In this document: positions 14,789 through 14,848 of the stretch, piece by piece
How the letters are laid out: every line of letters starts with the position of its first letter
Numbering within the stretch: the stretch's first letter is position 1
Assembly (NCBI GenBank): GCA_039190895.1
Contig: JBCCXY010000007.1
Coordinates: 1,357 to 65,356 of the forward strand
Length of the DNA: 64,000 nt
Direction of reading: 5' to 3'
Source: Pseudomonadota bacterium
GTDB lineage: Bacteria; Pseudomonadota; Alphaproteobacteria; Rhodobacterales; Rhodobacteraceae
Notes under the pieces: generated by a model
The model's input: the letters and a program-made list of their open reading frames with translations, nothing else
The model's database searches: none
Told to the model about the DNA's origin: nothing
Program-made: the position numbers and the translations under genes

Positions 14789-14848
14789 TCGCTCAACAGC
14801 ATTTTCGAAAACTGCATTTCATTTCACAGTTCCTTCGAAAACCGCGCT
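14789..14848 (+). promoter_or_regulatory. tts-box-like motif pair in a divergent promoter region
   Basis: GTCGCTCAACAGCATTTTCGAAAACTGCATTTCATTTCACAGTTCCTTCGAAAACC contains two TTCGAAAAC copies plus a TTCACAGTT element. It resembles the rhizobial tts box (GTCAG..TCGAAAGC) as recalled from memory. Lies upstream of 14913. Confidence 0.4.

Follow-up and report, generated by a model that had tools for sequence, protein, structure and literature searches.

How are type III secretion systems (T3SS) switched on in bacteria of the Roseobacter group? The question is raised by a stretch of 64,000 nucleotides (contig JBCCXY010000007.1, positions 1,357 to 65,356; hereafter the window) from a Roseobacter-group metagenome-assembled genome (MAG), in which a T3SS cluster of the Rhc type spans about 1.9–25.7 kb. 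T3SS clusters of Roseobacter-group bacteria have been mentioned in genome reports, e.g., for Epibacterium ulvae (PMC7989816), and no account of how these T3SS are regulated turned up in the literature searched. A first-pass annotation of the window had proposed a regulon composed of a TtsI-like regulator and the rhizobial tts box. The analysis described here leads to another answer: a box of two 11-nt direct repeats in front of T3SS genes is, with a probability of roughly two in three, an operator/promoter element of a T3SS regulon that represents a re-tuned Pho box and whose activator is the PhoB paralogue encoded within the cluster.

A direct-repeat box upstream of T3SS genes

An expectation-maximization (EM) motif search was carried out on 44 T3SS intergenic regions amounting to 11 kb from 12 loci, namely the window and 11 related T3SS loci (the loci used throughout are designated L001 and so on). 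Among the sources of relatives, a DNA search of a plasmid collection returned one Paracoccus match, and scans of genomes and metagenomes yielded three and two useful loci, respectively. Started from six different seeds, EM arrived at the same motif, CTTCAATCAGC CTTCACATTCC, the consensus of which consists of two 11-nt direct repeats, CTTCAAnnnnC-CTTCACAnnnn (also written CTTCAmAnnnC-yTTCACAnnnn or CTTCAmA-N4-CTTCACA). Its log-likelihood of 143.5 compares with 77.6–110.0 for nine shuffled sets. A scan of the whole window with the position weight matrix (PWM) of the family detected six sites of at least 14 bits, as opposed to 0.29 expected, and none of 300 shuffles reached four. With a PWM derived from other genomes only, the site at 14822 is the top match in the window at 21.5 bits (shuffle maxima: mean 12.8, standard deviation 2.4). 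Motif discovery on the intergenic regions thus bears out the first-pass annotation in that a real motif is present, although it had been delineated and named imperfectly.

Five boxes are found within 2.2 kb of cluster intergenic DNA, all of them facing a gene and located 61–97 nt before its ATG. The first, CTTCAATATCG CTTCAAAGTGC (1890..1911, plus strand; 11.5 bits), lies 97 nt before the ATG of orf1987, and boxes also precede orf1987 homologues in L023 (7071, 14.0 bits), L018 (8706, 18.0 bits), L019 (2115, 21.5 bits), and L012 (8464, 13.0 bits). Two boxes reside in the divergent promoter region at 14.8 kb. On the minus strand, CTTCACATAGC CTTCGCAAATC (14749..14770; 20.1 bits) stands 61 nt before the ATG of a gene for a 101-aa acidic protein, is followed after 5 nt by the −10-like sequence CATTCT, and has equivalents on the minus strand of L001 (12230, 21.0 bits) and L002 (12224, 13.0 bits). 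On the plus strand, the proximal box TTTCACAGTTC CTTCGAAAACC (14822..14843; 16.6 bits with the family PWM) is situated 91 nt before the ATG of a gene for a VWD/GDPH protein and aligns with L002 12277 and L001 12280. The box TGTCGCACAGC TTTCATGTTCC (16340..16361, plus strand; 14.3 bits), 83 nt before sctE, heads the sctE–needle–rhcD–rhcV–rhcC2 unit; it aligns with TTTCGCGAAAC CTTCACGTAAA at L002 13967, and boxes are found ahead of sctE in L010, L014, and L017 as well. Finally, CTTCAAACAGC GTTCAAACTTC (22358..22379, plus strand; 20.1 bits) precedes g22433 by 75 nt and is accompanied by a third half-site, CTTCACA, at 22376. The boxes at 14770–14749 (minus strand) and 1890–1911 were absent from the earlier list.

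Distant clusters carry the motif as well. Boxes precede T3SS genes even where the regulators are only ~60% identical (L012, L014, L017, and L019) and in the Paracoccus plasmid locus L010. Upstream of the regulator gene of L002, at position 670, the motif takes the form of a perfect direct repeat of 7 bp with an 11-bp period, CTTCACAGTTT CTTCACAAACC (CTTCACA-N4-CTTCACA). When the divergent promoter is aligned with its orthologues, the proximal block CTTCACAGTTCCTT, a TTAAC-like element, and an invariant TGCTGGCG are conserved; a 14-mer of the proximal block is shared with the regulator-gene upstream regions of L001/L016, L002, and L020 and has a further minus-strand copy in the divergent region of the window itself.

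The motif can be reconciled in large part with the elements reported earlier for four promoter regions. Those at 14.8, 16.3, and 22.36 kb do share a box (16.6/21.5, 14.3, and 20.1 bits), whereas the region at 2.7 kb does not (3.4 bits). The element TTCAC(A/G)G(G/T)T corresponds to the unit core of the 22-nt tandem repeat and TTC(G/A)AAA(A/C)C to its second unit at 14.8 and 22.36 kb. CA(A)ACAGC forms part of the first unit of the 22358 box (22362–22369) and, shortened to CACAGC, of the 16340 box (16344–16350), but its instance at 14794–14800 falls into a site of 2.7 bits. The strings quoted are present (TTCACAGTT at 14823, TTCACAGGT at 22377, TTCACGGTT at 2729), and the two copies of TTCGAAAAC described for 14.8 kb, at 14804 and 14834 and 30 nt apart, are exactly the two that exist in 64 kb, where composition predicts ~0.13. 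The distal copy CTCAACAGCAT TTTCGAAAACT (14792..14813, plus strand), singled out as the best tts-like site (CAACAGCATTTTCGAAAACT), fares poorly, with a score of 2.7 bits and no conserved counterpart in L001 or L002. It constitutes the first unit of a 30-nt tandem duplication in which 18/30 positions match. At the same place L002 harbors two extra in-phase units, CTTCAGACAAA TTTCAATTGGT, and four tandem units in all before its VWD gene. The element upstream of the regulator gene, cattTCACGGTTgtgttgcg (2722..2749, plus strand), is weak, with half-sites 12 nt apart, and the strong boxes ahead of the regulator gene in L002, L016, L020, and L023 do not align with it.

Promoter geometry

Seven promoters share one order of elements: the 22-nt box, a stretch of 17 nt with yTAAC at positions 5–9, and TGCTGGCG at offset 39. 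This octamer (TGCTGG(C/T)G) occupies the same offset at 14861..14868 (plus strand, 39 nt after the box start) and 22397..22404 (plus strand) in the window and in L001, L002, L003, L005, and L019; the 22358 promoter has the architecture of the VWD promoter. The sctE, orf1987, and minus-strand promoters lack the octamer, which probably sits at the transcript start/5′ end or in the leader. Past every box, a TAnnnn or CAnnnT hexamer begins 5–6 nt from the box end. In the VWD promoter the putative −10 hexamer is TACCCC (14849..14854, plus strand), assigned from the column that reads yTAAC in relatives; the −10 and transcription-start positions are thus predictions from alignment. A sigma-70 consensus promoter, i.e., a −35/−10 pair, was not found in 14150–16450.

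Other readings of these promoters were considered and dropped. A sigma-54 reading of TGGCGTCGAAATTAC at 14863 lacks the −12 GC, and the element is not conserved in L001/L002. An extracytoplasmic function (ECF) sigma reading (GAAAAC ... CGTC) would require a spacer of 25 nt. Box units taken as −35 hexamers (CTTGAC-like) would imply spacers of 10 or 21 nt. Lastly, the reverse-strand half-site CTGTGAA, if taken as a Pho half-site, would point away from the genes, and this reading was abandoned in view of CTTCACA-N4-CTTCACA at L002 670.

The leaders of the VWD genes (14869–14912 in the window, and orthologues) each contain a short GC hairpin just ahead of the ribosome-binding site. Each locus builds the stem from a sequence of its own (CCCCCCGGCC/GGCGGGG in the window, CTGACC/GGTCGG for L002, CCGGG/CCCGG for L001), which suggests that the hairpin is conserved as a structure.

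The motif might conceivably have nothing to do with an activator and instead reflect a core-promoter feature common to these genes, binding by an unlinked factor, or an A+T-rich similarity inflated by common ancestry. Intergenic DNA is indeed A+T-richer than the genome, which favours PWM matches, and the orthologous training regions are related by descent. Moreover, a high-scoring site at 3792 reflects a conserved FKVxSYS peptide, and two others, at 43566 and 59901, lie outside the cluster. However, the motif recurs at non-orthologous promoters within single genomes, five times in the window, with strict orientation and at constant distances to the −10-like element and to TGCTGGCG. It is also present in the distant clusters whose regulators are ~60% identical, and shuffled regions never came near the observed likelihood. 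The 11-bp spacing of the units is unfit for a −35/−10 pair, and the cluster encodes no other transcription factor. Because of its orientation, its spacing, and its recurrence at non-orthologous promoters, a non-regulatory or chance motif is unlikely, and the broader idea that the motif is not an activator site at all is improbable.

Three box-like sites were set apart from the five. The site at 3792–3813 (14.5 bits; with its counterparts L023 9188 and L020 8519, 14.5–20.9 bits) is contained in the 5′ end of the RhcC1-like coding sequence and was not counted, because coding constraint on the FKVxSYS peptide at the start of the signal sequence can explain its conservation; the start of the RhcC1-like gene in L020 was probably called too far downstream. 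The site at 59901 (minus strand; 16.4 bits with the small PWM) overlaps the stop codon of a P450 gene, abuts a 36-nt repeat, and was treated as a chance match. A further site of 14.6 bits, TTTTACGCGAT TGTCACATCAC (43545–43566, minus strand), is located outside the T3SS cluster, ~350 nt upstream of two tandem tRNA genes (43070–43217, minus strand), and is probably unrelated to the T3SS regulon.

A regulator of PhoB descent

The T3SS-linked regulator (2880..3566, plus strand; 228 aa), the true start of which is the ATG at 2880, is the one transcription factor encoded in the cluster, and its gene is followed by an intrinsic terminator at ~3590–3625. The protein is 54–56% identical to the chromosomal Rhodobacterales PhoB proteins encoded after pstSCAB-phoU and 27.7–29% identical to TtsI of Mesorhizobium amorphae; TtsI itself is equally far (28–30%) from all PhoBs. 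In a neighbour-joining tree the regulator clade has Rhodobacterales PhoB as its sister group, and TtsI falls far outside both. Relatives of the regulator at 58–81% identity all reside within T3SS clusters of this type, and a dedicated paralogue is found in every such cluster with enough sequence. Although the best NCBIfam model is TIGR02154 (PhoB), the score of 236.8 bits is below the equivalog cut-off of 296.2 bits, and the gene is not located beside pstSCAB-phoU, unlike P0050 and P0059. The regulator thus belongs neither to the PhoB equivalogs nor to the TtsI orthologues.

The receiver domain lacks the acidic pocket pair as well as the phospho-acceptor Asp, in place of which it has Glu (DLLMAERCL). 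The same exchange is seen in 16/19 members of the clade, while 8/8 genuine PhoBs examined have Asp. TtsI of M. amorphae also has Glu there (ILLLELAL), aligned, as is the window sequence, to D53 of PhoB, and the Asp-to-Glu exchange is, as far as is known, a general property of TtsI. Judged from these alignments, the regulator descends from PhoB and has undergone the Asp-to-Glu change. As TtsI is equally distant from every PhoB, the change in the two regulators is most simply explained by convergence. The exchange would render the regulator independent of phosphorylation. The best solved relative of its DNA-binding domain is E. coli PhoB on the pho box (1GXP, 3T72), the recognition helices being RTVDVHVGRLRK in the regulator and RTVDVHIRRLRK in E. 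coli PhoB.

Relation to the Pho box

The Pho box comprises two 11-nt units with the core CTGTCAT, and PhoB-dependent promoters carry these two 11-bp units in place of a −35 element (PMC4415409). The T3SS boxes share this layout with the promoters of E. coli, L021, and L022: two 11-bp direct repeats on the coding strand replace the −35 hexamer and end ~6 bp before the −10, or ~10 bp before the predicted −10 by the 18-bp definition. The Roseovarius pstS promoter of L021, for example, consists of the Pho box GTGTCATAAAA CTGTCATTTAA, 6 nt, and CATATC. The half-sites, in contrast, differ. Whereas the native pstS Pho boxes of relatives (L021, L022) are canonical CTGTCAT-N4-CTGTCAT, the T3SS consensus is CTTCAmA, and the closest box in the window, at 16339/16340, has 4 mismatches in 14, the other four being worse.

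Intermediate forms connect the two. Canonical Pho half-sites (CTGTCAT, TTGTCAT) occupy the same position of the VWD promoter in L003 (CTGTCATCAAC) and L005 (TTGTCATAAAC), and the first unit of the 16340 box reads TGTCGCA. Conversely, when the T3SS PWM is applied to L021, two sites within the Pho-box array of pstS reach 13.5 and 10.0 bits, the former being the top match of that locus; the corresponding array of L022 reaches 9.8 bits, second to 13.9 bits at an unrelated minus-strand site. On these grounds the T3SS box is read as a diverged Pho box that is distinct from the canonical one. The two systems also differ in that the T3SS regulator, with its altered receiver and sub-threshold PhoB score, is encoded away from pstSCAB-phoU, and in that the targets are secretion genes rather than genes of phosphate acquisition.

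Such relatedness raises the possibility that the boxes are variant Pho boxes read mainly by genuine, phosphorylated PhoB, in which case the T3SS would be part of the phosphate-starvation response and the paralogue a modulator or competitor. The paralogue and true Rhodobacterales PhoB are nearly identical in recognition helix and wing, which together with the TGTCAT units of the L003 and L005 VWD promoters, the TGTCGCA unit at 16340, and the 10–13.5 bits that the T3SS PWM assigns to Pho-box arrays fits this scenario; a PhoD phosphatase gene near the cluster in L018 points the same way. However, the native pstS boxes of relatives are canonical, and the five boxes of the window come no closer to them than 4/14 mismatches, a value attained only by 16339/16340. 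A dedicated paralogue in every sufficiently covered cluster would be hard to explain if PhoB sufficed, and strong boxes upstream of the paralogue gene in L002, L016, L020, and L023 suggest a self-contained loop. Genuine PhoB as the principal reader is unlikely, although control by PhoB in the form of cross-talk is possible.

Comparison with the tts box and other T3SS boxes

Inheritance of a diverged tts box and a TtsI orthologue along with the Rhc machinery, the explanation favoured by the first-pass annotation, has several features to recommend it. The T3SS is of the Rhc type, with a split secretin, a Y4YQ_C domain, and rhcJ–rhcU gene order; the regulator belongs to the OmpR family and bears the Asp-to-Glu exchange seen in Mesorhizobium TtsI; and the tts box itself can be read as (C/A)AGCT repeats 11 bp apart. 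The tts consensus, tcGTCAGcttntcGaaAGctnngccncnta (tcGTCAGcttntcGaaAGct...), is known from the rhizobial Rhc-I T3SS of NGR234 and B. japonicum (PMC3009519). Scanned without gaps and in three variants with a 1-nt gap, the window yielded no ungapped match at ≤4 mismatches to the published consensus, and none of this quality was found upstream of T3SS genes in L001 and L002, as opposed to ungapped tts boxes with 0, 0, and 3 mismatches in the M. amorphae control locus L011. The claimed gapped match to the tts core does exist at 14795, where 14/17 core positions agree (3 mismatches plus the gap); yet a site in the rhcV coding sequence, at 18834, equals it, and the 14795 site is part of the non-conserved 2.7-bit copy. 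With ungapped matches at ≤4 mismatches lacking and the gapped one rivalled by coding DNA, the tts-box resemblance is no better than chance. The family PWM, for its part, is blind to the tts-box promoters of L011, and a search limited to the minimal nod-box core (ATC-N9-GAT) found none in 1700–2900, upstream of the regulator gene. Given, in addition, 27.7% identity to TtsI versus 55% to PhoB and the separation of the two in the tree, a TtsI/tts-box inheritance is largely excluded. What stands of the earlier proposal is a dedicated OmpR/PhoB-family regulator with Asp-to-Glu and a shared box before substrate and machinery units; the regulator is of the PhoB lineage, and the box is not a tts box.

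The parallels between the two systems are nevertheless extensive. In both, an Rhc-type T3SS is accompanied by a cluster-encoded OmpR-family activator (a predicted role in the present case) with Glu at the phospho-acceptor position, and a box of ~20–30 bp precedes the needle/nopA-type operon and genes for secreted proteins but not every rhc gene (PMC3973906). The perfect tts box upstream of ttsI in L011 (34590) resembles the regulator-upstream boxes of L002, L016, and L020 in its placement. In contrast, the regulator here is only 28% identical to TtsI and PhoB-descended, the box sequences are unrelated at the level detectable by scanning, no nod box and no flavonoid/NodD input are present, RhcU is only ~32% identical to that of rhizobia, and the host is a marine member of the Rhodobacterales rather than a legume symbiont. 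The system is best read as a functional analogue of the TtsI/tts-box regulon that has arisen from PhoB and the Pho box.

Other T3SS regulons rely on different boxes. The plant-inducible promoter (PIP)/hrpII box, TTCGB-N15-TTCGB, is the target of HrpX/HrpB, which are regulators of the AraC type; the hrp box, GGAACC-N15/16-CCACNNA, is read by the ECF sigma factor HrpL. The cluster contains no PIP box, the single match in the window (57308) being below chance expectation, and an HrpL hrp box was not found. As in the present system, a cis element of their own labels the genes for T3SS machinery and effectors and lends itself to effector mining; the regulator class is a different one.

A model for activation

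In the model that emerges, two winged-helix domains of the paralogue would bind head-to-tail, one per 11-bp unit. The downstream protomer would recruit sigma-70 RNA polymerase in place of a −35 element, as in the class II promoter layout of PhoB, to a weak −10 (TAnnnn) located 5–6 bp past the box without a −35 hexamer. With Glu in place of Asp, the paralogue would be active without phosphorylation, its activity being set by abundance rather than by a kinase. Five units would be targeted, namely orf1987, the divergent pair at 14.8 kb, the sctE-to-rhcC2 operon, and a strain-specific toxin/immunity cassette. A box before orf1987 and the regulator gene, or directly before the regulator gene in relatives, would close a positive feedback loop.

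Binding of the regulator to the boxes is a prediction, and several observations weigh against the model. The base-contacting residues are seemingly the same as in PhoB, and yet the half-site differs (CTTCACA versus CTGTCAT). The orthologous training regions are non-independent, which inflates the EM statistic, and the window's own sites were in the training set of the family PWM used for the whole-window scan; the PWM from other genomes only avoids this circularity, but for the 14822 site alone. The window's regulator promoter (2515–2879) attains a best PWM score of 3.4 bits. The region upstream of the main structural operon (3567–3717; operon, 3718–14196) has no box, the best score being −6.7 bits, and orthologous regions align poorly, although a box-less main structural operon has a parallel in rhizobial rhcC1 (PMC3973906). 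Lastly, the stretches covered of the Paracoccus T3SS loci L009 and L010 contain no regulator homologue, even though L010 has boxes.

Gene content of the cluster

The nearest genomes to the window, which has a G+C content of 58–70%, are MAGs of uncultured Rhodobacterales and Shimia. Pfam and NCBIfam models identify rhcJ, sctL, sctN, sctQ, sctR, sctS, sctT, and sctU at 6245–14196, in the rhcJ-to-rhcU order of Rhc systems. The RhcC1-like protein (3718–4371) is an N-terminal secretin fragment that matches only the N-terminal 148 positions of SctC. The second unit, 16423–21853, begins with the SctE-like gene at 16423, followed by a needle-like open reading frame (ORF) of 48 aa, the gene for an RhcD-type protein with a Y4YQ_C domain (16853–17806), sctV/rhcV, and the gene for an RhcC2-type secretin with T2SS-T3SS_pil_N and Secretin domains (20594–21853). 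A split secretin is a hallmark of the Rhc family (PMC3973906). Because of the split secretin (RhcC1 and RhcC2) and the Y4yQ/RhcD-type protein, the system is placed by its domain content in or near the Rhc family, as a distant member; for RhcU, identity amounts to ~32% with rhizobial proteins and to 42–45% with proteins of Paracoccus plasmids.

Among the predicted targets, orf1987 (1987..2514, plus strand; 175 aa) matches no Pfam or NCBIfam model. The gene immediately precedes that of the regulator and is conserved in the cluster: tblastn finds homologues in L002, L018, L019, and L012/L013, each time just upstream of the regulator. Beside the orf1987–regulator pair of L023, a 17.2-bit box (5745–5766) lies 62 nt upstream of a gene whose 397-aa product has HemolysinCabind (RTX) repeats; the motif thereby points to this protein as a candidate effector. 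The divergent gene for the very acidic 101-aa protein (14404..14709, minus strand) has homologues at the same position in L001, L002, L003, and L005. Opposite to it, the 320-aa VWD/GDPH protein (14913..15875, plus strand), a candidate secreted substrate, shows a weak Pfam VWD match (E = 4e-5) and a WGDPHF motif, and homologues reside within at least six further T3SS clusters, namely those of L002, L003, L005, L010, L012, and L019. Autocleavage at a GD/PH motif has been described for VWD/RGM domains and for the rhizobial effector NopE1. The gene is followed by a 100-aa ORF (15943–16245).

The last unit (22433..24111, plus strand) comprises g22433 and an Imm30 immunity-family gene. In the 407-aa product of g22433, the N-terminus is acidic and disordered and the C-terminal domain is rich in His (PHHVPS...HPHPG); the two genes resemble a toxin/immunity pair under a T3SS box. 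No homologue of the cassette of g22433, Imm30, and DUF416 (22261–24946) was found in any other locus fetched; in L002 a tetratricopeptide-repeat gene directly follows the rhcC2-adjacent gene, i.e., without the g22433 cassette.

Repeats and a hairpin occur in several places. A 36-nt inverted repeat pair (CTTCACCTGGCTGGAAAATACCTCCCCCGGAGGGCC; 92% identical) has one copy at the left edge of the strain-specific cassette (22279–22314) and the other after the P450 gene (59844–59879). A family of repeats of ~140–250 nt, similar to miniature inverted-repeat transposable elements or repetitive extragenic palindromes, is represented at 11873–12300, 14198–14373, and 46647–46833 (inverted): rhcS and rhcT, which abut in L001 and L002, are here 535 nt apart, the gap being filled by two copies in tandem; a further copy comes after rhcU, and another, inverted, is 32 kb off. 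A strong hairpin at 5453–5516 (−34 kcal/mol, z = −3.9) after a small Gly-rich gene (5198–5443) is not followed by a U-tract. Five loci (the window, L001 ~3487, L002 ~3561, L016 ~10701, L020 ~10320) have kept its inner loop, GTCGCCAGCAACGAC, which holds CGCCAGCA, the reverse complement of the TGCTGGCG of the VWD and g22433 promoters.

Implications

An activator of the OmpR/PhoB type acting on a direct-repeat box is known in kind; what is of interest here is the evolutionary origin from PhoB and the Pho box. It is an evenly balanced proposition that marine Roseobacter-group and Paracoccus-type bacteria run a divergent Rhc-like T3SS through a duplicated PhoB, with an Asp-to-Glu change convergent with that of TtsI, which reads a re-tuned Pho box that travels with effector cassettes.

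If true, two OmpR-family lineages would have evolved convergently into kinase-independent master regulators of T3SS via the same Asp-to-Glu exchange. The system would also constitute a natural case of a duplicated PhoB and its operator drifting apart, insulating a new regulon from the phosphate response despite an almost unchanged recognition helix. In practical terms, the PWM would serve to find secreted proteins and effectors genome-wide in uncultured lineages, marine symbionts, and pathogens of algae and invertebrates, as exemplified by the HemolysinCabind protein of L023. The occurrence of a toxin-plus-immunity cassette under the box would hint that some T3SS substrates endanger the very bacterium that makes them.

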